DNA of 64,000 nt, taken from assembly GCA_000165345.1 (NCBI GenBank), contig CM000430.1, positions 576,001 to 640,000 on the forward strand, written 5' to 3'. The translations under genes were made by a program, and so were the position numbers. This document shows positions 4,496 through 56,481 of this stretch, in pieces. Under the pieces are notes generated by a model that was not told the DNA's origin, did not search any database, and worked only from the letters and a program-made list of their open reading frames with translations. Each line of letters begins with the position of its first letter. Position 1 is the first letter of the stretch.

Positions 4496-5617
4496 ATGAT
4501 AATAGTAGGATTAATTGGATTTGATAACGTAGTTGCAGAATATGCATTCAGGTTCATTGTGGAAAGGTTTAGTTTCAAAGGAATAAGACTCGTAGATTGT
4601 GAGCGAAATTGCAATTTTGATAATGCAGCGAACAAGTTAAAATCAACTAATAAGTTAGAAAGCCATTTTAAAACTTTTGGGGAGGAATGTGGCAAAAAAG
4701 CAATAAGACAAATTTGCTTTTGCGGAAGCGATTCAGAGGAATCTTATGATGATTGTATTAGGTTCAGAGCAAAGAAAGCTTTCATGATATCAACTACAGA
4801 TTTGAACTCAAGTTATGTTATTTCAAAAATAACAAAAGAAAATGAATTTGATATCTTTTCAAATACATTTTTTGTTAGTTTGGCTATAGATCTACCTTTG
4901 ATTTCTAAGCTTTCTTTGCTAGAAACGAATTACGAGAATGCAAATTTTGAAGAAGTTGAAAAATCTATTGAGGTATTAAAAAATTCCCCAGGAAAGTTAA
5001 AAGAACTTGCCTCAATATTGGTTCAAGATTTTGAAGAGAAAAAAAGGGGTATTTGTAGACTGGTAAGAAGATCTGATTATTATATCAGCTATTTCACAGA
5101 TTTTTCCGATTTGGAGAAAAAGTTGATTAATCTCGGGCTATCTAAAATAGATTCACGCCCAAACTGGGATGAATATTTTATGAAAATTGCAAAACTAGCG
5201 TCTCAAAGGTCTAACTGTGTTTCAAGAAAAGTTGGATCGGTAATTGTTAAAGACAAAAAAATCATTAGTACAGGGTATAATGGGACTCCAAAGAATATGA
5301 AGAATTGTTTCGAAGGTGGGTGTACAAGATGCTCTAACCCAAATAGAGTAGAGGGAAAATCATTGGAAACTTGCTCATGCATGCATGCAGAGACAAATGC
5401 ATTACTGTTTGCTGGGATTGATAAGTGTATTGGAGCAACTATATACGTTACATTGATGCCCTGTATCTCTTGTACGAAAAATATCATTCAATGTGAAATT
5501 GAAAGGGTCGTATTTACTACTGAGTATGCAATTCCAGACGAGATTTCCACCATTAAATTACTTAGAGATTCAAATGTAAAGGTGGATAGATTAGTGGAAA
5601 AACAGTCATGTTTATGA
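4496..5617 (+). CDS. deoxycytidylate (dCMP) deaminase with ~230 aa N-terminal extension
   Basis: C-terminal CMP/dCMP deaminase zinc-binding signature: CMHAETNALLFAG (HAE) and LMPCISCTKNI (PCxxC), preceded by VGSVIVKDKKIISTGYNGTP. A long N-terminal extension is known for fungal Dcd1-type enzymes. Confidence 0.75.
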   Translation: MIIVGLIGFDNVVAEYAFRFIVERFSFKGIRLVDCERNCNFDNAANKLKSTNKLESHFKTFGEECGKKAIRQICFCGSDSEESYDDCIRFRAKKAFMISTTDLNSSYVISKITKENEFDIFSNTFFVSLAIDLPLISKLSLLETNYENANFEEVEKSIEVLKNSPGKLKELASILVQDFEEKKRGICRLVRRSDYYISYFTDFSDLEKKLINLGLSKIDSRPNWDEYFMKIAKLASQRSNCVSRKVGSVIVKDKKIISTGYNGTPKNMKNCFEGGCTRCSNPNRVEGKSLETCSCMHAETNALLFAGIDKCIGATIYVTLMPCISCTKNIIQCEIERVVFTTEYAIPDEISTIKLLRDSNVKVDRLVEKQSCL

Positions 5618-5691: not shown

Positions 5692-6714
5692 TTATTCTTC
5701 TGGCAAATCTATTTCATTTTGGAAAATGGAATGATTTATTTTAACTTCAGGCGAATTTTTGTCCCTGTCTTTATGATCATTTTCGATACTTTCAACTTGA
5801 TTCTCTTCTTCCTCAATTATTTCGCTATAGGCATTCATTTCTGGAATATCATCATCTGAAAGGAATGCATCTTCATCAATTTCATATGTATCTCCTCCAG
5901 CAGCATCTTCATCATCAACGAAAAGTGATGGGTCGTAAACAAACAGGTCCCGTCCAGACATTTGTTTGCCTTGTTTTGCTGCATCAGCCTTAGCCTTCTC
6001 CTCTTCTTCCTTTTCTTTTTTTTTCTTCCATTCCATAAAAGTTTCAAATGTTACAGGCGTTCCTGGGCCTGGAAGCTCAAGCCTTTGCCTTTCAATTCTT
6101 TCCTCTAATGTTTCTTCTTCACCTTCTATGTCTCCACCGTCATCACTTTCTTGTTCTTTAATTACATAACCCACTGGCAAACAATGACGATATTTGCAAT
6201 TGTCGCCTCCTTCTGGACATACCCAAAACCATCCATATTGTTTCTTCTCAACAGCTGAAAGGAAGTGCTTGCATATAATTTCTGTGCTAAATGATGTTGG
6301 TTCTTGGCTCAAAGGAGCTTTTTTTGAGCCAGAATTTTGTTTTTGATCTCTTTGATCAATATAAAGGTCAATTTTTTGCTCTGCTTTAATTGTTGAGGGA
6401 TCAACTTTGCGTGCATCTTCTGCAGAAACTTTTTTGATATTTTCAGTACCTTTAAATAGAGCAGCTAAGAGAGCTTGCTGTTGTGCCTGCTTCTTTTTTT
6501 CTTCTTTTGCCTGCGCTGCTTTAAGCTCCTGGTTAACTTGCCCTCCTTTCGAGTTGTTTATTTGGGAAGTTACAGATTTTATGTATTTCTGTACGCTTTT
6601 ACTTTTGTTTTTATTCTTTAGTCCGAACGTTTTGTCCTCAATGATTTTTTGTTTCTGCTTTTCTAAGGCTCTTTGTTGCCCTCTCTCTTGCTTACTCTGG
6701 TTCTTTGGTGGCAT
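5692..6714 (-). CDS. ZC3H15 / TMA46-like CCCH zinc-finger protein (DRG-family regulatory protein)
   Basis: N-terminus MPPKNQSKQ...IIEDKTFGLKNKNKSK and CCCH fingers CKHFLSAVEKKQYGWFWVCPEGGDNCKYRHCLP, with a K/E-rich acidic tail. This matches the ZC3H15/TMA46 layout. Confidence 0.65.
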   Translation of the reverse strand: MPPKNQSKQERGQQRALEKQKQKIIEDKTFGLKNKNKSKSVQKYIKSVTSQINNSKGGQVNQELKAAQAKEEKKKQAQQQALLAALFKGTENIKKVSAEDARKVDPSTIKAEQKIDLYIDQRDQKQNSGSKKAPLSQEPTSFSTEIICKHFLSAVEKKQYGWFWVCPEGGDNCKYRHCLPVGYVIKEQESDDGGDIEGEEETLEERIERQRLELPGPGTPVTFETFMEWKKKKEKEEEEKAKADAAKQGKQMSGRDLFVYDPSLFVDDEDAAGGDTYEIDEDAFLSDDDIPEMNAYSEIIEEEENQVESIENDHKDRDKNSPEVKINHSIFQNEIDLPEE

Positions 6715-7012
6715 TTTACTACTTAAATAAAGCTTCCTTTTATCCTCTCACTAAATTATATTCAAAAAGAAAATTGTCAAAACATTGGCGGGCAAAACTA
6801 GCAATAACCAGTCTAATTACACAATTTTACTAATTTTATTCATAAAAACATTAATTAATGACTAATTATTTTCCTACTTATTCAAGAGTAATTGAAGTTT
6901 AATTCAAGGTGACAAATCCTTATTTAGATGCTACTATAATATCTATGATATTTATTTTATACATTGTAACTTTAATAAAGAAGGAGTCGGCTATATATTT
7001 ATCTAGCAATAC

Positions 7013-7882
7013 TTAGTTACTAGAAATCCTATTTAGGTTAAACTTGCAATATTTATGATAGTTGCAAACGATAGAAATACCACAAAAAGACCTAGTAATT
7101 TCAACAAGAATAGACTTACTTGGATTTCCTAGATCGACTGGATAGAGTTTCTTGTATTCTTGGTATTTTGGGCCGTCTTCAGGACCCCAAATTAGCTCGG
7201 ATGCTAGATCATATATCTCTTGTCTCTTAATATCAGAGCCGCTGTATCTGGAATTATAGTAGCATGCCCAAGAAGCACAACTAGTTTCTTTTCCAAATTC
7301 AGACTCTGAGCAAAAGGCATTGTTGAAGCTTGACAATATCAAAGCTTTCATATTCTTATGAATTTCATCTAATTTTGCTGAGCAAATTATATCTAGTGGG
7401 ACTAATCTACTAATATATCTGGATGATAATAAGCAACCAGAATCAATTTCACTCTTTCCTCTATTTTCTTGAGTCCTATGTTCATATGCACTTTTCATAA
7501 GCTTTTCAACCAAAGCAGATGGCTTATCATTTGAATCGTTAAATTGAATTAATACCAGACATCTTGATATATTGTCTATAAGTTTGAATCTGGAATTATC
7601 CTTCTTAAACTTCTTTGTCTCTAGTTCAATGCTTTCTTCAATAGTTAAATCATCATTTGGGTAATTCGGGCTTTCCTGTTCATTATATTCGGAATTACTT
7701 AAAAGAATTCTAGATATATCTCTATAAGCTGCAATACTTTTATTATTCACTGTAATTGACATCAAAATTCCTTTATTCAAAATTCTTAGATCAGGAATTC
7801 CTGATCTTGAATTATTTGATTTCCCAACAGGGAAGTATTTTCTTTTCTTATTCATTTGCAGTATATCCGCCAGCAATACCAA
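7013..7882 (-). CDS. hypothetical protein (possibly THUMP-domain-like)
   Basis: 289-aa complete ORF; codon usage matches neighbours. Weak resemblance to THUMPD1/Tan1-type proteins only. Confidence 0.35.
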   Translation of the reverse strand: MVLLADILQMNKKRKYFPVGKSNNSRSGIPDLRILNKGILMSITVNNKSIAAYRDISRILLSNSEYNEQESPNYPNDDLTIEESIELETKKFKKDNSRFKLIDNISRCLVLIQFNDSNDKPSALVEKLMKSAYEHRTQENRGKSEIDSGCLLSSRYISRLVPLDIICSAKLDEIHKNMKALILSSFNNAFCSESEFGKETSCASWACYYNSRYSGSDIKRQEIYDLASELIWGPEDGPKYQEYKKLYPVDLGNPSKSILVEITRSFCGISIVCNYHKYCKFNLNRISSN

Positions 7883-7982
7883 AAAGTGAAGTACCTCAAT
7901 TAAATTAGCTTTTTGTTTCTATCGATCGAATTTTAATTATTTTTATAGTGGCGGGTTTAAATCTAGAACTATAAACAGATTA

Positions 7983-8675
7983 TTAAAGTGCCGTGCCTCT
8001 TTCTAGATTTTGTTTAATTTCAGAAGTATATTCATGATAAGCCCTGTCTAATTTCTCATTGTACTTTTTATTCCCCTGATTTATATGATATATATCAGGC
8101 CTAATATAAATTGACTCTGATATGAATCTTTTTCTTTGGTTCTTTATATACTGATTTATTAGCAAATTCTTATCGTTGTCAGAGGGGACATGAGAAGTCC
8201 GAAGAAATTCGGACCTTTCTGGATTAGCTTTCAACTCGCTCATCTGTTGTTCATACTTTTCTCTATCGAAAATAATTTTTTTGTTTGTACTTGAAATAAG
8301 ACCTTTTTTTCTATTTTTTGTTCTAATTCTATTATTTTCCGTCACATTCTCAAATTTCTGTGAATTTCTTTGAATTCTCCAAAGCTCTGTACTTCCGAAA
8401 CGAATATCACACGTATATTCTACTTTCGAATCATTTTTTGCAGTTCTCAGCGCAGAGCTCTCGATAAATTCCTCATTCGAAAACTTTAAAAGTTTATCTA
8501 ATTCCTTCCTCCTTTCGTTTCTAAATATTTCCATATTGAAAATCATTGCAGAATGAACTTTTGTATTCAAACTGTTCAGTGTCTCTATCTTCTCATTATT
8601 TCGTAACTCATCTTCACTGCGGAATAAAAATTCAAGTAAGTGCCTCGAACTATTTGTTTTTTTTTCCGCTATCAT
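7983..8675 (-). CDS. hypothetical basic K/R/E-rich protein
   Basis: 230-aa ORF with a true ATG (ATGATAGCGGAAAAA); charged low-complexity sequence typical of nuclear proteins. No domain recognised. Confidence 0.35.
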   Translation of the reverse strand: MIAEKKTNSSRHLLEFLFRSEDELRNNEKIETLNSLNTKVHSAMIFNMEIFRNERRKELDKLLKFSNEEFIESSALRTAKNDSKVEYTCDIRFGSTELWRIQRNSQKFENVTENNRIRTKNRKKGLISSTNKKIIFDREKYEQQMSELKANPERSEFLRTSHVPSDNDKNLLINQYIKNQRKRFISESIYIRPDIYHINQGNKKYNEKLDRAYHEYTSEIKQNLERGTAL

Positions 8676-20293: not shown

Positions 20294-23200
20294 ATGTACA
20301 AATTCAATAATTTATTAGGAGTGCCATATAATGGAGGCGATATTCTTTTTTTCTCAGATTCGTCAAACTTGGTCTCTAATGTGGACAATAGGATTTGTGT
20401 TCATGATATAAAATTTAACAGAACCCATGTATTGGGATGTGAAGCAAGAAGTAATATAAGCAAGATGTGCCTTTCACCTGACGAGAGCATTCTAATTTGT
20501 GTAGACGAAGATAATTATGGCTCAATTGTCAACTTTTCAAAAGGGCTTATTCTTAATAGAATGCAATTTCCCGGTTCAGTTGGATTCATTTGCTATAGCC
20601 ACAATGGAAATTACGTTGCTGCAGCAATTGATTCTGGAATATATATATGGCATGCTCCATGTATATCAAAAGGTTGGCAATTGATATTAAAGAGAAAGCA
20701 TATTATCCACAACTCTAAGGTTAATTCTTTAGATTGGAGTAGGTGCGATCGTTTTTTACTTACGGCTAGCAATGACATGACTGTAAGGCTTATCAGCATT
20801 GAAAAGATTGACCATTTTGACACTGTAGCCTTTATTGCCCACAAAAATCCAGTTGTTGGCTCCTACTTCACGAAAAACATGCAATTCATATTTTCTGTAA
20901 GCTCTGAAGGCGTTATAATATTCTGGAAACCTTCATCCAAAAAGGAAAGTCAAGGTAAGAAAGTTTTTACCCCCCAAAAAATTCTCCCTAGACAAATTAA
21001 GAAATCTAGGGCAAATACTAAATTAGCCTTAGACATAGATTCAGACATTGAACCAGAATTTTATGATGGAATAAGAAGTAAATATTGGATTGAGGCCCTG
21101 AGAGCATATGTAAATCAATCAAAAGGAGCGATTATTACAGGCTGTGCATTTAATTATGAAAAGAACCTGGCTGCAATTTCAACATCTAATGGAGTATTTA
21201 CCTTATATGGAATTTCAGTTGGGCTGGATTCTGACTCTTTCGACCCAAGTAATGTCTTAATTAATTCAATCCATACGTTTTCACTTTCTAACTCCCCTTT
21301 AACTTCACTAAAATTTGGTGCAAAAGGCGAATGGCTGGCAGTTGGAGCTGCAAAAACTGGTCAGCTTATCATTTGGGAATGGCAATCAGAGTCGTATATA
21401 CTTAAGCAGCAAGGCCATTCTTTTGGTATACAATCTTCTGGTTTTAGCCCGGTAGGATTAACTCAAGGGAAATGGAATGGAAAAGCTTCTCATGACGATT
21501 ATCTTGGCATTGGATCAAGAACAATAATTGCAACAGGAGGGGTTGACGGCAAAGTAAAGCTTTGGGATATTAGTTCAGGATATAATTTTGCGACATTTTC
21601 AGATCACATCGCCCCAGTTTCTAAAGTTATTTTTAATCCCCAAGGTAATGCCATCCTATCCGCTTCCCTCGATGGTTCAATCAGAGCATATGATATTATG
21701 AGATACAGAAACTTCAGGACTTTAACAGCCGACGAAGATACAGGCGTTCAGTTCACATGTGTTGCAATTGATAGAGCTGGTGATTTAGTAGTAGCAGGCA
21801 GTCAGGGCGAAGAATGCAAAATTTATGTCTGGAGTTTCCAAACCGGTAAGCTAGTAGATAAATTGTCTGGGCATACATCCAACATAGTTGACATCGCGTT
21901 TTGTCCTTCGCTTTCTAGCCCTGGCATTTTAGCTTCTGCTTCATGGGACGGCACTGTTAGAATATGGGATCTTTATGCACGTGTTGGTAAAGGAGCAACA
22001 GGGGAAACCTTAGTACACTCTTCTTCCGTGCTTTCAATAGCATTTGACCCTAGAGGGAATAATATGCTTGCAACCAGTTCTTTGTCCGGGAGTATTACTT
22101 TCTGGGATATAAATAAGGGCACTGTTGAAGGTAGTATTGATGGTCTAAGAGATATTCATAGCGGAAGGAGCTCTTCAAGTGCATTTTCTGCAAATAACAG
22201 CAAAGGCGGTGGCGGAAGACTTGGAGCAAAAACAAACCAAAATATTAATAGAAACCAACACTTCTCATCTATCTGTTACAATAGCAATGGAAGATTTCTT
22301 CTTGCCTCCTCTAGAAATTCAGCTAGAGTATGCCTTTATGATACATTAACCTTTACTTTGGTTTCTACTGTTCAACTAACAAATTCTCGTTTCTTTTCGG
22401 GAATTAGAATGGAGCTTAATTCCAATTTAAATTCCAACAAAAAGAAAAAAAGAATCCCCGATTCTGAAAATCCTGATGAAATTTGGAGTTCTTCAAATAG
22501 ATTAAGCGAGAAAGAGAAGATTATTCATGAACATAATTCTTTACCAGGAACTATTGTTGGGGAGTTCTCAAGCCCTAGCAGGCAATCTCATTTTTCTGTA
22601 TATGAGGTGGCATTTTCCCAAAACTCATCGCATTGGATTGCTTCTACTAGCCATGGAGCATTCCTTTTCTGCATTGATACTCTAGGAAATTCATATTCAG
22701 GCTCTTCAACTCACTTAAACATGTTAGATACTTTTAAAAAGCAAATAATGACAAAAGAGGTAAATGTGAGCAATATTGATCATTTTCTCAAAGAAGGAGA
22801 TTTTTTAAGAGGCTTGATTCTTGCATTGGCAATGAATAATTTCAATATACTTGCAAAGGCGTATGTCCAAATTCCAATTACTTCGATTGACTACATTGTA
22901 CAGAATATTGTTTCATTTTTTCTTCCAAATATACTAAACTTTTTAAGAATTGTAACAAGCCCTAATAATAAACAATTTTTCAGATTAGAACGCCATCTTA
23001 TTTGGGTTGAATCTATTATCAGAATCCATGGGAATACATTCCTAAATGTAAATGAAACTATTAGTGAATCTCTAAATAACAGTAAAACTGTTTTTGAAAA
23101 TAATGCAGCGAACAAAAATAGTGAGGAGAGCGAAAAGCTTAAACAAAACAAACTCGCAATATTGTCTACAAATCTCAGTGACTGTGACACAAGAAGTATT

Positions 23201-23305
23201 TTTCTTGCAATTTTGATGAATATCTCTCAAATTTACTCATTTTCAAGGCAAATATATGACTCCAATTGCTCTATATTGCATTATATTTCATCTAAACTAA
23301 TATAG
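20294..23305 (+). CDS. PWP2: periodic tryptophan protein 2 (PWP2/UTP1), SSU-processome WD40 protein
   Basis: N-terminus MYKFNNLLGVPYNGGDILFFSDSSNLVSNVDNRICVHDIKFNRTHVL parallels yeast Pwp2 (FSNLLGTVYRQGNITFSDDGKQLLSPVGNRVSVFDL). Multiple WD repeats follow (VKLWDISSGYNF, GTVRIWDLYARV), then a C-terminal alpha-helical domain. Length ~1000 aa as expected. Confidence 0.75.
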   Translation: MYKFNNLLGVPYNGGDILFFSDSSNLVSNVDNRICVHDIKFNRTHVLGCEARSNISKMCLSPDESILICVDEDNYGSIVNFSKGLILNRMQFPGSVGFICYSHNGNYVAAAIDSGIYIWHAPCISKGWQLILKRKHIIHNSKVNSLDWSRCDRFLLTASNDMTVRLISIEKIDHFDTVAFIAHKNPVVGSYFTKNMQFIFSVSSEGVIIFWKPSSKKESQGKKVFTPQKILPRQIKKSRANTKLALDIDSDIEPEFYDGIRSKYWIEALRAYVNQSKGAIITGCAFNYEKNLAAISTSNGVFTLYGISVGLDSDSFDPSNVLINSIHTFSLSNSPLTSLKFGAKGEWLAVGAAKTGQLIIWEWQSESYILKQQGHSFGIQSSGFSPVGLTQGKWNGKASHDDYLGIGSRTIIATGGVDGKVKLWDISSGYNFATFSDHIAPVSKVIFNPQGNAILSASLDGSIRAYDIMRYRNFRTLTADEDTGVQFTCVAIDRAGDLVVAGSQGEECKIYVWSFQTGKLVDKLSGHTSNIVDIAFCPSLSSPGILASASWDGTVRIWDLYARVGKGATGETLVHSSSVLSIAFDPRGNNMLATSSLSGSITFWDINKGTVEGSIDGLRDIHSGRSSSSAFSANNSKGGGGRLGAKTNQNINRNQHFSSICYNSNGRFLLASSRNSARVCLYDTLTFTLVSTVQLTNSRFFSGIRMELNSNLNSNKKKKRIPDSENPDEIWSSSNRLSEKEKIIHEHNSLPGTIVGEFSSPSRQSHFSVYEVAFSQNSSHWIASTSHGAFLFCIDTLGNSYSGSSTHLNMLDTFKKQIMTKEVNVSNIDHFLKEGDFLRGLILALAMNNFNILAKAYVQIPITSIDYIVQNIVSFFLPNILNFLRIVTSPNNKQFFRLERHLIWVESIIRIHGNTFLNVNETISESLNNSKTVFENNAANKNSEESEKLKQNKLAILSTNLSDCDTRSIFLAILMNISQIYSFSRQIYDSNCSILHYISSKLI

Positions 23306-23450
23306 AAATAATTATAGATTATATAAACCTTTCTAATTTTTTTAAATTAATTTGATTATGCTATCTTTATTTTTTATTTCAGAATCAATGAGCAATTTTC
23401 AATATTTTAAGTTTTTTTTAAATATTTCACAGTGTATTTTAATCCCCACA

Positions 23451-23502
23451 ATGCATGCATAATTAACATGAATTGCAGGCATGACTATTATTTGCATGCA
23501 TG
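23451..23502. promoter_or_regulatory. cluster of GCATGCA(T) words upstream of the KDEL-receptor-like gene
   Basis: ATGCATGCAT (23451-23460) and TTTGCATGCATGG (23491-23503), plus ATCATGCAA. (TGCATGCA is a word reported as over-represented upstream of apicomplexan genes and bound by an AP2 factor.). Confidence 0.4.
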
Positions 23503-23766
23503 GATAACAAAATCATGCAAAAAAATGGTTATATATTTGAAACATTTGAAGACGAAAAATTTTCTTTCGTAATGCTTTTTGCTTTGATTTGAGTATTTAT
23601 TGTCTTTACAAGAGGAACAAAAAAATAAAACATCCGGCTACCAGTAATTGGAGTTAATTATTGAAAGCAAGTTTATTAATCAGACAAGAACAGTAAATTG
23701 GTAATTCTTTAAAACTTAAAAGTAATTTTTATAGATAGCCAAATTGGAATTGTTAAATTATAAGGT

Positions 23767-24708
23767 TTGTTAGACTTGAAGATGATGATGTATTCGGGGC
23801 ATATTTCAAGCAAGTTAGAAAATGACAAATTATCATATAGTTGCTACCAAGGCAGGGAAAAATTGGAATATAATGAAAGTTGGTTTAATAAAATCAAGAA
23901 TAGAAGTGAAGTTGGAGTATCATACCAAAGCCAACTTGAAATTTTATTCTGGATAGCATTTTGTCTATTATTAATGGTTGGGTATAAGTACCTTTCGGAT
24001 GGAAGTTTTTCAGCAATATTGACACTTTCTTCAGCCTTTCAGTGCTTTGCATTTCTATTATTGGCATCAAAGGTAAATACTCAGTGCTCTCTTTCGGGAA
24101 TTTCACTAAGAAGCCAAATACTGTATTCAATAGCTTTAATTTCAAAACTATCTTCTACCTTATTTTTTAATGGATATTTACCAGTAGATAGATCTGGGGA
24201 CTGGGTATACCAAGTGGCTGATGTTGTTTCATTGGCTATTTCTTTATTATTAATTTACTGGGGGAATACAAAGCTCAAGTATCAATATAAATTTGATAAA
24301 GATTCAGTAAATATCGTGATTCCTATAGTATTTTCTGCTATTTTAGCCGCAATTATACACCCAGATTTGAATAGTTATTTCCCTGCCGACTTTGCTTGGA
24401 CATTTTCATTGTATTTGGAGACAACAGCTATGTTACCGCAGCTTGTTATGATGACGAAAATTGGAGGCGAAGTTGAAACTCTTACAAGTCATTATTTGGC
24501 ATCATTGGCAACATCAAAGATTCTTTCATTTGTATTTTGGCTTTTTTCTTATAGAGAGCTTGCTCCAGAACATGGAAAAAACGTTCCTGGTTGGACTGTA
24601 ATGGCTTCCTTTGCGATTCAAATTATTCTTTTTACAGACTTTTTGTATGCATACATTAAATCTGTTCGCTTAGGAAAAGCATTGATTATTCCTACAAGTA
24701 TTGTATAA
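23767..24708 (+). CDS. KDEL (ER-lumen protein-retaining) receptor family protein, N-terminally extended
   Basis: Seven-helix pattern; [37 protein letters not shown] matches ERD2 [50 protein letters not shown] matches SCAGISGKSQILFA. The true start Met may be internal (MMMYSGH..). Confidence 0.65.
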   Translation: [313 protein letters not shown]

Positions 24709-51099: not shown

Positions 51100-53214
51100 A
51101 TGAAAACTGAAACTAAAATTTCTCTGTTTTTTTCTTTTATAATTCTATTATGTGAATACTCTTTCTCTTTGGGTAATATTCAAAATCAATTTGAAAGATT
51201 TAGAACTTTTAATACTAATCATGACTTGCTAGAGCATCATCAAAACCCCAGTTCAAAAATACAAAGAACAAATGAGGATATTAAAGATGGCGTAAGCCCT
51301 TTATTTGAAAAGCCTGAATTAGATGGCAGATACAATAAATATAGAAAAATATACGACAAAAAAAACCAAAATGAAAAAATTAAGAGAAAGGATCAATTAA
51401 AAAATCAAGTGGAAGAACTGCTAGAAGATATGGACTATGTGAAGCAAAAGCAACGGTACTTAGAGTCAGACACATTAGACAAATATTTTTCATTTAGAGG
51501 AGCAGAAGAACATTCAATTGATGATTTGGACTTTGAAGGATTATTTGATCCAGAATATGGAGGAAGAGGAAGAGTTCTGGAAAGTTATAAAATCACCACA
51601 AATGATATTTACAAAGATGAATTAAAACCAAGAAAATATGAATACGCTATTGGAGCAACTCTAAGAGATAAGAGATACGACAAGCATAGAAAAGAGAGCA
51701 ATAATGAAATTGTATTAGTTATTACTCCAAAGAACTTTTTTGCTGATAAAGATGGAAAACTCTCACTTTTACCGAGTTTAGCTCTTAAAATAAACAAAAA
51801 CTCAAAGCTCTCAACATTAATAAAAATGATCCACAAACTCATATCTTATGCTTATCCAGGTATATTAATTGAAAGGATTCGTCATTTAGAAACACAAATT
51901 ATTTTGAATGAAGCACCCAAAACAGCTAAACTCAGTTCTTTAAAAATAAAAAATGGGAACGAAATCTCTGTTACATTTAAAAATGTACCCAAAGATAAAA
52001 AATCAGATAAGTACCATCAAACTCAAGAATTACCTATAGAAGAGCTTCCAATGACTCCAATAGAAAAAGATATTCCTGAGCTTCCTGAGCTGGATGTTCA
52101 GGAAAATCTTGATTTAAGTCAAGGTCCCAGTACTCAACAAAGCTTAGAAACTAAAGTATTAAAATCTAAAGATGATATTTTGAATGAAGATGAAATTTTA
52201 GAACCTAATAAAACCATTGAAAATCCTTTATCCAATAATTATGATTTTAATGTTGGGGATGAATATGAAAAATTAAAGTCTGATTATTTTCAAAACATCA
52301 GAGCTGGCAAAATTGCTATATATAACTCTGATGACGAACCACCAAGACAATCTAATCACAAAGAACATCAATTTGTATTAAGCGATGAGGGAATTGATAA
52401 TGATGGACAAGAAAGAGCAGTAGAGGCTGAGAAAATAGACATTAATGATTCTGATGACTCCTATTTAGGAACTGATATAAATCATTGCAACTATAAGGTA
52501 AACTTCAAACAAATTACATTACCTGTATCAAATTTTACTAATGAAATCGAACGGAACAATATTAAAGATATTTTAACTCTTAACGTAACATTTAGCGAGC
52601 TTGAGCCATGTAATTTGGAAACACTTATTTCAGAAGTGAATAAAATAGCAAAATCCATGGGAAAGAATTATTCTCTTGTTAGAATGGAACATAATGCATC
52701 AAAGAGAGAGCTACTAGCTCTTTCAAAAGATAACGAGAAGCACCATCTTTTGGATCTCGAAATAATTAGGGGTGACGAATTTAATGCATTTTTAATACTT
52801 GAAAAAACTCAAGAATCTGACTATTCAAAGAATGATATTGATAAACATGATGTAGAAATTATATCTGATCTGACTGAGAAACAGATTTCTATTGCGGACT
52901 GTCAGATATACATGACCATTTTTGTTGATTCAGCATCACTTCGCGATAATATTAACCAATCCCTTTCCAAGGAACCCCTTAACAAGAATAGAAGCTTAGG
53001 AAAAGGAGGAAAAAAGCATCTTAAACCAATTAATATATGCACTCAAAGTTATGTTCCTATTAAAAAAGTACTAGAAAAGATCAAGATTATATTGAAAGTA
53101 GATTCAAATTTGAATGAAATTTTCATATGCGGAGATAAAATTGTAGATACTTGTAGCAGTTTACCAGTTTCATTAATCAAATCAGAAACATGTGTTCTTC
53201 GATTTGATTCATAA
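51100..53214 (+). CDS. hypothetical secreted protein (signal peptide), K/E/D-rich
   Basis: 704 aa; N-terminal MKTETKISLFFSFIILLCEYSFSLG. No recognised domain. Confidence 0.5.
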   Translation: MKTETKISLFFSFIILLCEYSFSLGNIQNQFERFRTFNTNHDLLEHHQNPSSKIQRTNEDIKDGVSPLFEKPELDGRYNKYRKIYDKKNQNEKIKRKDQLKNQVEELLEDMDYVKQKQRYLESDTLDKYFSFRGAEEHSIDDLDFEGLFDPEYGGRGRVLESYKITTNDIYKDELKPRKYEYAIGATLRDKRYDKHRKESNNEIVLVITPKNFFADKDGKLSLLPSLALKINKNSKLSTLIKMIHKLISYAYPGILIERIRHLETQIILNEAPKTAKLSSLKIKNGNEISVTFKNVPKDKKSDKYHQTQELPIEELPMTPIEKDIPELPELDVQENLDLSQGPSTQQSLETKVLKSKDDILNEDEILEPNKTIENPLSNNYDFNVGDEYEKLKSDYFQNIRAGKIAIYNSDDEPPRQSNHKEHQFVLSDEGIDNDGQERAVEAEKIDINDSDDSYLGTDINHCNYKVNFKQITLPVSNFTNEIERNNIKDILTLNVTFSELEPCNLETLISEVNKIAKSMGKNYSLVRMEHNASKRELLALSKDNEKHHLLDLEIIRGDEFNAFLILEKTQESDYSKNDIDKHDVEIISDLTEKQISIADCQIYMTIFVDSASLRDNINQSLSKEPLNKNRSLGKGGKKHLKPINICTQSYVPIKKVLEKIKIILKVDSNLNEIFICGDKIVDTCSSLPVSLIKSETCVLRFDS

Positions 53215-53334: not shown

Positions 53335-54330
53335 TTAAGGGCTGGTCCCACATAATAAATTCATGCAATCATAGTATTCTACGGAACAACCATATCTTTT
53401 GCAGCCGACCATACAAAAGTCTTTTGAGTACTGTGAGCATTGAGACATGCATGACACTGGAATACTCGAAACTCCAGCAACTATAGGTCTGTTTACATTG
53501 CAAGCTCTTCCACAAGTCTTTATAAAATACATACTTAATGTAAGAGCACATGGACCATTGCCTTTGAATTCGTAATTTCCAAGAGTTGATGCAGAAGATA
53601 TCAAGGATAGGGGGGCAGGAAGGAAGCCCACTTCGAATTTGAGGTTTCTTTTTTGTTTATGAGTAAGAAGATATTCCACAAGCATTACGCATGAGGAAAC
53701 CACAAGCTCTGATTCCATATCATCGAGACTTTTGAGATTCTTTGCAGTTGAGCAAATATCATCATTATATGCTAGACTAAAAATGTCTGGTTTTTCTTGT
53801 TTAAGTGCTTCCGTCTTAGAGCACAACATTCCCAGTTCTAAAAGAGCAACCAAAGATTGGCAGCAGTTCTAAAATGATTTGAGTTTTTTTTTTGTTAGTA
53901 TTCCGCTAAGAATAATATCCTACACTTTACTTACTGGAGCAGGTTTCAACGTTGTTTCAGGAATTTTTAGTTCCTCACACCTTTTTTCAATAAATTTTAA
54001 GGTAGAGCTAATTAAAAGACTTTTTACACGCTTTAGTTTTATATTTTCACGTTCAAGTAAAAAAAATATCATGAGCTAGTAATTTCTTAGAACTTACTGT
54101 GCTTGGATCGTTCTTAGTGTGATTATGATGAGTTGAATTTCGATTGCTCATTTCCTCTGAGAAATTCATTTGTTTTATATACGGTTGCATTAAAATACGA
54201 GCAAATTTAAAAAATGTTTATAACCAAGTTATGTTTTCAATTTCTTACCACTCATTCTTATGGTTTCGGATCTTATATTTTGGCAGGCAATTAGCAAAAA
54301 CACAACAAAAAATATAAAGTGAATTTTCAT
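53335..54330 (-). CDS. small secreted 10-Cys protein, paralog A of a local 3-gene family (3 exons)
   Basis: Model join(53335..53868,54098..54156,54249..54330). Exon 1 MKIHFIFFVVFLLIACQNIRSETIRMS (signal peptide), donor G|GTAAGA. Exon 2 (E)EMSNRNSTHHNHTKNDPST, flanked by tctcAG and GTAAGT. Exon 3 begins NCCQSLVALLELGMLCSK after ttttAG, as in paralog C. C-terminus C-x11-C-x3-C-x15-C-x3-C-x7-C-x3-C-x4-C-x6-C-x4-C. Phases are consistent, but the 229-nt intron 2 is unusually long here and the intron positions are the least secure part. Confidence 0.45.
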
Positions 54331-54533
54331 TTTCAAGGATCTTGGAAAATTAGTTTTTGAATTTCCTTTAAATATATGAAGGCTATAATATAAGCTGTTA
54401 AATAGTTTATTTTAGAAAAAATCAGGCTAATCTTAGCATGCAAACTTATTGCATAATACACATGAATTAATAAGCAAAAATAATCAAAAACTATAATTTA
54501 AGTACATACATTCGTTTGCATGTAATCATGTTT

Positions 54534-54560
54534 ACATGCATGCAATGTCAAATGCATGAA
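54534..54560. promoter_or_regulatory. cluster of GCATGCA words upstream of Cys-rich paralog B
   Basis: TTTGCATGTAATCATGTTTACATGCATGCAATGTCAAATGCATGAA lies 160-200 bp upstream of the ATG at 54716. Confidence 0.4.
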
Positions 54561-54715
54561 TATTTACAAAAACTCAGGCCTACAAGTTAAAGATACTCGG
54601 TTAAGAATTATAAGTTCCATTTTATATTTTAGACAAATTTTTTGCTGAAATCACTAAAATTGCAATTTTGTGAAAACAGCAGTTATTCTGAGAAACATAA
54701 TGTAAAATTATCACT

Positions 54716-55678
54716 ATGTTGCATTTCGGCTTTCTTTTAATATTCTTCTTGCTTCCATTTATTGGAAGAACTGCGGATCCTGATTTAAAATTTAAAAATT
54801 TGAATGAATCCAAGAAGGGGTTGGTTAAAGAAGAACCTCCTTTTGCTACCAGCGTTAAAATGAGTGAAAATAATGAAACAATTGTAAGTAAACTTTCTCA
54901 TCAAAACTAATTAGTATAACAAGTTATTTTTCTCCCCTCTTTATAGTCAGATTTTTCAATCTTAAACTCATCAAAATTTAATAATATTTTGTCAGCTGAA
55001 ACTACATGCTCAAGAAAGCTACAAAATAAGGATAAATATCCGAATTGCTGCTCTTCAATTGTTTCAATTTTTGAAACTGAAAGGATTTGCAATCAAAAAC
55101 CTCAGATAGACAAGTCTCTAAATGAAAGCAATGGAGAAATTGCAAGAGAACTATCAGAAATCAAGCAATATTATGATTACCATTGTAACAATACAGAGTA
55201 CCAACTTTTAGTTTCAAAAAATATCACATCAGATGATGTGTATAACTGTATGAGGTATAATGAATTAACTACAAGAAGTACAAATAGCACATTACAGGAA
55301 TTGGATGGAATTAAATTAAAAGATAGTGAATCCATAGTCGACAATCAAAGAGCATTACAAATAACTGGTTGGATGAATAGTTTTGGATTACCTGCAATTT
55401 CTTCGACTACTATGCTTTCACAATCAAGGTTTACTGAGGGCTCATTCATGCATTCAAGTGGAGGTCAAAATTGCTCTCCACTATTAACATTAATATTTGT
55501 TCGTGTTTGTAACTCTATCTGTAATGCCAATAACGACTCTTCTTCTGGAAGAGCATCAATACCTATTTTTTGTTTAAGGGACTGCCAGCCTTTTGCAAAG
55601 TTTGCCTGCTTGCGTGGGTGTAGAACCTTTGGGTGCCATGTTGATATATACACCTGTATGGAACTTATGTGTCAGTGA
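54716..55678 (+). CDS. small secreted 10-Cys protein, paralog B (2 exons)
   Basis: join(54716..54883,54947..55678). Exon 1 MLHFGFLLIFFLLPFIGRTADPDLK... (signal peptide). Donor GTAAGT at 54884; acceptor ctctttatAG at 54945-54946. Exon 2 contains the NCCSSIVSIFETERIC module and the C-terminal VCNSICNAN...IPIFCLRDCQPFAKFACLRGCRTFGCHVDIYTCMELMCQ. Confidence 0.55.
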
Positions 55679-55730
55679 TTTTGTCAAGGTATTTTGTAAG
55701 GTATAAGAAACAAAAATCTAAAGTAAATTT

Positions 55731-56481
55731 TTACGTAAGCTTGAAGTTACACATTTGGTAACTGCATGCATCAAAAGGTATATTACACCCGAAAAAAGAG
55801 CATCCACGTATGCAAACATGGTTTGCAAAATCCACACAAATTGGGAAGCATGATCTCGGGAATACCTCTTCTTCTACCGTAAGTGCAGTCTCTGCATCGC
55901 ATAGTTTTTCACATACTTTAATATAATGCAAGGAAAGCACAGATACACATATTTTTTGGGTTTGATATTTAAATATATTTCCTTGAGGGGTATCTTGAGG
56001 TCCTCTTAACGATGATGTTGATTGGGGAAGTCTGATATGAGATCCAAATCCTGACTTTATTTGTAGTTTCCTGTCAGTAAAATTCATTTCTTTACAATAT
56101 TCAAAATTTTCATGGTTTTTCCAAGAATTGACATCATCAGAATCTGATTTTTTTAGTATTTGACTACACTCACTATTGAATGCTATAAATTCACTCTTAT
56201 TTCCCATCTCTTCTAGTAGGCCAGTTTCATTATTAGGCCTATTTAAACAAATTTCTTTTGAATAGAGTGAAATCGTTATTTCATTACAGCAGCTCTAAAA
56301 GGAATAAAATTTAATATTTCTTGAACACCTTATAAAATGTTAGATTTCATTGACTCACCTTTAATTCTTTCATATTGTTATCATTGATACTTTCTGAGAT
56401 CAATCTTTGACATTTTCCATCACATTTACATCTTATTAAAAATAACATAATTAAATACAAGATCCCAATAGTATTTACCAT
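55731..56481 (-). CDS. small secreted 10-Cys protein, paralog C (2 exons)
   Basis: join(55731..56294,56359..56481). Exon 1 MVNTIGILYLIMLFLIRCKCDGKCQRLISESINDNNMKELK (signal peptide). Donor GTGAGT (plus actcac at 56353-56358); acceptor ccttttAG|AGC TGC TGT. Exon 2 SCCNEITISLYSKEICLNR... ends VCEKLCDAE...SCFPICVDFANHVCIRGCSFFGCNIPFDACSYQMCNFKLT. Confidence 0.55.

Follow-up and report, generated by a model that had tools for sequence, protein, structure and literature searches.

A Cryptosporidium-specific trio of 16-cysteine, predicted secreted proteins with female expression: candidate components of the oocyst

The oocyst wall underlies the chlorine resistance and water spread of Cryptosporidium, and its protein make-up beyond the COWP family is poorly defined; deletion of COWP8 gives no phenotype. 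COWPs are built as large tandem arrays of Cys-rich repeats. COWP1 to COWP9 are Cys-rich proteins with a signal peptide, no transmembrane (TM) segment, and female expression, and a role in the disulfide-rich protein layer of the wall has been proposed for them (PMC13657310). Here we analyze a 64,000-nucleotide stretch of Cryptosporidium parvum chromosome 2 (contig CM000430.1 of assembly GCA_000165345.1; hereafter, the window), in which three adjacent genes, cgd2_3040 (A), cgd2_3050 (B), and cgd2_3060 (C), encode a trio of small Cys-rich proteins. The reading that we favor, with modest confidence, is that the trio is an old, genus-specific family of secreted proteins separate from the COWPs, made in females and deposited in the oocyst, probably as structural or accessory components of the wall.

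Like the COWPs, the trio is Cys-rich and expressed in females, and its members combine an N-terminal hydrophobic segment and the absence of a TM segment with a switch from no expression at 24 h to expression at 48 h of culture. COWP1 (cgd6_2090) and COWP8 (cgd6_200) share with cgd2_3040 the predicted hyperLOPIT "oocyst_wall" class (Guerin et al. 2023), as listed in the Tandel 2023 analysis code (PMC10233709). However, no homology between the two families was detectable, and the trio family profile, run over 1.84 billion representative proteins, recovered no COWP. The trio proteins are also small (228 to 299 aa), with a single, non-repeated architecture of 6 plus 10 Cys that is predicted to be all-helical. 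COWP homologues are also present in coccidia, whereas the trio is found in Cryptosporidium only. Non-COWP genes of the wall class named in the same code, cgd2_1590 (Apple/EGF), cgd2_4350, and cgd3_3700, share the predicted compartment of A and belong with the trio to expression cluster BulkCluster4, but they are unrelated to it in sequence and domains, and none carries the 16-Cys scaffold. The three genes are laid out as follows.

53335 to 54330, minus strand: gene A, cgd2_3040 / CPATCC_0027750, 256 aa, four exons
54330-54249 (signal-peptide exon), 54156-54098, 54030-53935, and 53868-53335, minus strand: exons of A; the spliced translation equals P0040/QOY42926.1
54716 to 55678, plus strand: gene B, cgd2_3050 / CPATCC_0027740 / cpbgf_2003050, 299 aa, two exons
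54716 to 54883, plus strand: exon 1 of B, signal peptide and N-terminal linker
54884 to 54946, plus strand: intron of B, 63 nt, GTAAGT..TAG
54947 to 55678, plus strand: exon 2 of B, the 3' exon
55731 to 56481, minus strand: gene C, cgd2_3060 / CPATCC_0027730, 228 aa, two exons
56481 to 56359, minus strand: exon 1 of C, signal peptide and CKCDGKC
56358 to 56295, minus strand: intron of C, 64 nt, GTGAGT..TAG
56294 to 55731, minus strand: exon 2 of C, the 3' exon

An initial annotation, made from the nucleotide sequence alone, had placed the genes at these coordinates and on these strands and had called them paralogs. Pairwise BLASTP bears this out (E = 6e-18 for A-B, 2e-11 for A-C, and 2e-13 for B-C), and a tblastn search of the window found exactly three family copies; judged by sequence, A, B, and C are paralogous far beyond chance. 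A regular-expression match recovered one identical C-terminal spacing in all three proteins, C-x11-C-x3-C-x16-C-x3-C-x7-C-x3-C-x4-C-x6-C-x4-C. The 10-Cys scaffold that the initial annotation had described is therefore present throughout, but its long spacer is x16 rather than x14/15. Likewise, the inner block reads C[LIM][RV]GC-x2-[FY]GC, with two residues before [FY]GC where one had been given, and with V in place of R in A. All 10 of these Cys are invariant and ungapped in 25 of 25 family sequences from at least 10 named species.

53350 to 53550, minus strand: 10-Cys domain of A, aa 186-252; regular-expression match, Cys invariant in the alignment
55472 to 55672, plus strand: 10-Cys domain of B, aa 232-298; regular-expression match, Cys invariant in the alignment
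55749 to 55949, minus strand: 10-Cys domain of C, aa 157-223; regular-expression match, Cys invariant in the alignment

The N-terminal half follows the pattern C-x(12-18)-CC-x12-C-x(22-31)-C-x(20-23)-C, its alignment columns being incomplete where public orthologue models are N-terminally truncated. The CC-x12-C module that had been noted in each protein was found by motif match in A, B, and C. Together, the six Cys of this half and the ten of the C-terminal domain give 16 conserved Cys in the mature chain. Mature A and B contain 16 Cys each, an even number that fits fully intramolecular disulfide pairing in these two proteins. Each protein consists of one 6-Cys half and one 10-Cys domain, and internal repeats are absent.

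53821 to 53865, minus strand: CC-x12-C module of A, CCQSLVALLELGMLC, which opens the N-terminal 6-Cys half
55046 to 55090, plus strand: CC-x12-C module of B, CCSSIVSIFETERIC; motif match
56247 to 56291, minus strand: CC-x12-C module of C, CCNEITISLYSKEIC; motif match

The linker between the Cys-rich halves is variable except for a single motif, R-x-L-[QK], whose R and L are the same in each of the 25 sequences. This motif may be a protease-processing or interaction site.

53638 to 53649, minus strand: R-x-L-[QK] of A, RNLK, residue 153
55349 to 55360, plus strand: R-x-L-[QK] of B, RALQ, residue 191
56061 to 56072, minus strand: R-x-L-[QK] of C, RKLQ, residue 116

The N termini of A, B, and C are strongly hydrophobic and resemble signal peptides by a Kyte-Doolittle (KD) heuristic, and in the spliced models each lies in a separate 5' exon, as had been proposed. 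From this segment we infer that the trio is secreted. Beyond the signal peptide, a scan of hydrophobic 19-mers found no TM-like segment in any of the three proteins (all at or below KD 1.35), and the C termini stop 2 to 6 residues past the last Cys, too soon to accommodate a glycosylphosphatidylinositol (GPI) signal. UniRef names C. meleagridis orthologues "Integral membrane protein"; we rejected a membrane-protein reading on the same 19-mer result.

Searches for a described domain agreed with the earlier remark that the Cys scaffold was not recognizable as a named one. A Pfam scan of the full-length proteins gave no family above the cut-off and none at E<=1, and the Las1 and DUF1265 matches were sub-threshold noise. 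Micronemal adhesive domains (TSP1, Apple/PAN, EGF, and MAR) were not found in A, B, or C by the same scan. A sequence-profile search of the PDB returned only V-ATPase subunit E, with E above 2, and a Foldseek search of the B model against the PDB gave nothing at E below 2.5. AlphaFold2 (AF2) models of B (17 sequences; predicted local distance difference test [pLDDT] score of 53) and of the last exon of A (25 sequences; pLDDT of 62) both predict an all-helical half on each side of a disordered linker, for which pLDDT is below 50. The helices predicted in the C-terminal domain of B span residues 233-248, 263-284, and 290-298.

Two further systems invite comparison. Small Tims are twin CX3C helices stapled by two disulfides. 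The trio has a comparable core, CX3C-x16-CX3C, on two predicted antiparallel helices, and so recalls the small Tim / twin CX3C / CHCH proteins (zf-Tim10_DDP, PF02953). The trio, in contrast, has no Pfam match, carries signal peptides, and has six further Cys in the same domain; given their signal peptides, the proteins would fold oxidatively in the endoplasmic reticulum (ER) rather than in the mitochondrial intermembrane space. We regard the likeness as a structural analogy only. With the PEXEL and TEXEL motifs of Plasmodium and Toxoplasma the trio shares an invariant R-x-L in a disordered segment. However, this motif lies 100 to 190 residues from the N terminus, the residues that follow do not fit RxLxE/Q/D, and the trio, unlike PEXEL/TEXEL effectors, is expressed in the female/oocyst stage with no transcripts at 24 h. 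The resemblance may serve as a lead but does not amount to membership, and the motif is too distal for an export signal of the PEXEL/TEXEL type.

In the full-text literature, no mention of the cgd2_, CPATCC_, and cpbgf_ gene identifiers was found outside supplementary tables. Between sorted asexual and sorted female parasites, expression of cgd2_3040 rose from 0.96 to 7.43 log2 counts per million (log2CPM; log fold change [logFC] = 6.5) and that of cgd2_3060 from 0.96 to 5.59 log2CPM (logFC = 4.6), the asexual values being the detection floor (Tandel 2019, PMC6877471). In the same study, all three trio genes belong to BulkCluster4, with almost no expression at 24 h, expression at 48 h, and RNA present in sporozoites. 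Values in sporozoites, at 24 h, and at 48 h were about 4.4, -2.1, and 7.2 for cgd2_3040; 9.8, 1.6, and 7.2 for cgd2_3050; and 7.0, 0.6, and 6.0 for cgd2_3060 (PMC6877471). Sexual stages appear at 48 h, while the 24-h culture is asexual and also yields invasive merozoites. The trio is listed among the female genes without orthologues in P. berghei or E. tenella (PMC6877471). At the protein level, cgd2_3050 and cgd2_3060 were quantified by tandem mass tag (TMT) labeling in excysted oocysts, and their levels were the same in the cowp8 knockout (Bacchetti 2025, PMC12548878, S7 Table). A CRISPR-screen supplement held no entry for the trio genes. The hyperLOPIT class given in the analysis code supports a wall role directly for A; for B and C, we infer a wall location from paralogy, coexpression, and presence in oocyst material.

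Word-indexed protein searches with B, A, or the family alignment as query returned only Cryptosporidium matches. The HMMER family profile, run against the 1.84 billion representatives, recovered nine clusters, all of A, B, or C type and all from Cryptosporidium or unnamed reads; among them are proteins of the gastric species C. muris, C. andersoni, and C. serpentis. As far as these databases extend, the family is restricted to the genus Cryptosporidium. C. parvum, C. xiaoi, and C. felis share one gene order and orientation (-,+,-), in which the trio is bounded by the cgd2_3030 orthologue and by the HMG-box and TSP10 genes, and each paralog has conserved syntenic orthologues across intestinal Cryptosporidium species.

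The initial annotation had also read the divergence among A, B, and C as the mark of a fast-evolving family. Synonymous rates (dS) are saturated against C. felis and C. xiaoi, and we therefore used proportions of nonsynonymous (pN) and synonymous (pS) differences, together with nonsynonymous rates (dN) relative to neighboring genes, in place of dN/dS. Against C. felis, the trio has pN of 0.18 to 0.24 and pS of 0.76 to 0.88. The dN values are 0.21 (A), 0.25 (B), and 0.29 (C), similar to TSP10 (0.22) and lower than the Voldacs gene (0.38) and cgd2_3030 (0.54), and within the 10-Cys domains dN falls to 0.06 to 0.17. As read from these substitution patterns, the family is under purifying selection. 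With syntenic orthologues conserved, pN well under pS, and dN not exceeding that of neighbors, the family is old and constrained rather than fast-evolving, and the strong A/B/C divergence reflects the age of the duplications, not rapid change.

In C. muris RN66 (DS989742.1), compared by identity-based bootstrapping, the syntenic interval contains two family members, at 6001-6796 and 7631-8540 of the locus, not three. One is annotated, B-like, and in the position and orientation taken by C in C. parvum. The other, A-like and unannotated, is interrupted by in-frame stops and frame changes and has Tyr in place of several Cys; it represents either a pseudogene or an error in the assembly. The A-type protein of C. 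serpentis is intact.

The region between A and B is rich in a motif bound by female-specific regulators.

54331 to 54715, strand not applicable: shared A/B divergent promoter region, 385 bp, 25% GC
54436 to 54558, strand not applicable: cluster of (T)GCATGC(A) AP2_1-type motifs, with a full TGCATGCA at 54537

The A-B intergenic region contains six TGCATG/CATGCA hexamers, the window maximum (window mean, 0.27 per 385 bp), and TGCATGCA is found 8 times in the window, where 1.2 occurrences are expected. The region at 23151-23835 (around 23.2 to 23.8 kb) ties with the A-B promoter at 6 hexamers per 385 bp, and a tandem TGCATGCATGCA lies at 5378-5389. C. felis has the hexamer cluster between A and B as well, the A-B cluster being the only one compared across species. 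The female-specific AP2 proteins cgd2_3490 and AP2-F bind TGCATGCA, which corresponds to the AP2_1 motif (PMC12246861, PMC4117751). The oocyst-wall gene set is unaffected by AP2-F loss (PMC10233709), which makes cgd2_3490 or another AP2_1 binder the more likely regulator of the trio. From the motif content, the A/B promoter may be under AP2 control.

On the favored reading of an oocyst-deposited, probable wall family, the trio genes would be transcribed in female gametes (macrogamonts), with A and B read from their common divergent promoter rich in the AP2 motif. The proteins would enter the ER, where their 16 Cys would form intramolecular disulfides and staple the helices into compact, resistant modules. 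They would then take the secretory route with other wall material to the oocyst and form part of its proteinaceous wall, beside the COWPs but unrelated to them. A more elaborate version, which we put forward tentatively and consider doubtful as a whole, is a COWP-independent, genus-specific wall family with a new disulfide-stapled helical fold, cleavage at RxL[Q/K], and female AP2 drive. Cleavage at the linker would part the 6-Cys from the 10-Cys module, and a female AP2 such as cgd2_3490 would act through the motif-rich divergent promoter. If this were true, parasites that lost the family would form weakened transmissible oocysts or none at all.

Several observations weigh against the favored reading. 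The published oocyst-wall assignment exists, within the lists of the analysis code, for A only, and hyperLOPIT is a fractionation-based prediction, not microscopy. Neither the oocyst-wall nor the crystalloid-body list of that code (PMC10233709) includes cgd2_3050 or cgd2_3060, and A was not found in the excysted-oocyst TMT table (PMC12548878). For B, the mRNA level in sporozoites (9.8) exceeds that at 48 h (7.2), which could indicate a sporozoite function. The signal-peptide call for the trio is heuristic, and the structure models are of low confidence, so that the fold claim stops at "helical." Finally, the two C. muris members, one apparently decayed, argue that the full trio is not indispensable genus-wide.

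The main rival holds that the trio comprises sporozoite-specific secreted or surface proteins, made from stored female or zygote mRNA, that act in excystation, in tethering within the oocyst, or in the first invasion step. B fits it best: all three mRNAs are present in sporozoites, where that of B peaks. The excysted-oocyst material that yielded B and C protein contains sporozoites and walls together, neither B nor C is in the wall list of the analysis code, and a TSP-domain gene, CpTSP10, lies nearby. However, that code classes A with the COWPs, no adhesive Pfam domains were found, and the trio is silent at 24 h, when merozoites with shared invasion machinery form; other oocyst-wall-class genes named in the code show the same combination of sporozoite and 48-h expression. 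On this evidence a sporozoite role is unlikely. We give still less credence to the trio as female-gamete surface or secreted fertilization factors acting, for example, in male-gamete recognition, by analogy with Cys-rich gamete proteins of apicomplexans. Such a role would account for the strong female enrichment, the secreted Cys-rich character, and the listing among C. parvum-only female genes, but the proteins lack a membrane anchor (no TM segment, and too short a tail for a GPI signal), both mRNA and protein are still found in mature oocysts and sporozoites, well past fertilization, and A cofractionates with wall proteins according to the analysis code. Very improbable is the earlier suggestion of fast-evolving effectors that interact with the host or are exported into it during invasion or intracellular growth: although the trio is a small, Cys-rich, lineage-specific family with signal peptides, no known domain, and an RxL motif superficially like PEXEL/TEXEL, its genes are silent in asexual stages within the host cell (sorted asexual cells give values at the detection floor) and induced in females and at 48 h, its orthologues are conserved with pN far below pS, the RxL motif lies far from the signal peptide, and A is in the oocyst-wall class of the analysis code.

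The gene models on which the wall-family reading builds were assembled from the splice junctions of the initial annotation, all of which proved to be in frame with GT..AG introns. Spliced B has 100% identity to P0001/QOY42925.1 over 100% of its length, and spliced C is an exact match to P0023/QOY42924.1; both models also equal their BGF, C. hominis, and C. meleagridis equivalents in current public annotation. For A, the start codon, exons 1 and 2, and the acceptor before NCC held, but the proposed 224-aa model has no database counterpart, the CPATCC model being 256 aa. Splice enumeration traced the difference to a single missed 96-nt exon, 54030-53935, inside the 229-nt "intron 2," which leaves a GTAAGT intron on either side of it (67 and 66 nt); the introns of A are 92, 67, and 66 nt long, and every one is GTAAG...AG. 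This exon 3 encodes RVKSLLISSTLKFIEKRCEELKIPETTLKPAP, adds one more conserved Cys, and is kept in the C. meleagridis, C. ubiquitum, C. felis, C. ryanae, and C. serpentis proteins. It is left out of one C. hominis model, P0037 (202 aa). The 96 nt of exon 3 are a multiple of three; because skipping it preserves the frame, an alternative A isoform without exon 3 is possible. The introns of the CPATCC annotation are stated to be 100% RNA-seq supported (PMC8744675), so the transcript check of the junctions is effectively done for B, C, and the four-exon A.

The initial annotation had held that the family would be missed as secreted. This is true of the original 2004 models (142, 158, and 164 aa), which lack signal peptides, but not of the current CPATCC and BGF annotations, which include the 5' exons. 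In C. felis, the A orthologue has an unannotated signal-peptide exon, MNIFYSFVLVLLIICQIVSSEPILM (locus 5500-5422), with a GTAAGA donor and phase 1 as in C. parvum, and that of C. xiaoi (locus ~5585-5510) is also unannotated. With such exons unannotated, many public orthologue models (164, 201, and 228 aa and similar) are without a signal peptide.

The window has a GC content of ~32% and dense, for the most part intronless, open reading frames. The trio is flanked on one side by an NSF-like AAA ATPase, a Voldacs-domain gene, and cgd2_3030, and on the other by the HMG-box gene cgd2_3070 and the CpTSP10/Kringle gene cgd2_3080. The 704-aa product of cgd2_3030 (51100-53214) has an N-terminal signal-peptide-like segment and no Pfam domain. 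In the TMT data from excysted oocysts it is ~16 times as abundant as either B or C (log2 of 21.1 versus ~17), and no gene of the block evolves faster (39% identity to C. felis). The convergent genes B and C have stop codons only 52 bp apart (55679-55730); their 3' untranslated regions must overlap or abut, and antisense read-through between these coexpressed paralogs could occur.

Public sources already contain the genes, the corrected exon structures, the female expression pattern, and, through the analysis code, the wall class of A. What appears to be undescribed is the trio as one family, with a 6-plus-10-Cys architecture, conserved synteny, and a linker motif. The finding is of moderate interest: the genes were already annotated though uncharacterized, no expectation is overturned, and the trio offers useful candidates for oocyst biology. 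Recognition of the trio as a single family sets right many public orthologue models that are truncated and without a signal peptide. It also provides concrete candidates for wall construction or for oocyst/sporozoite biology, which are possible markers specific to the transmission stage.

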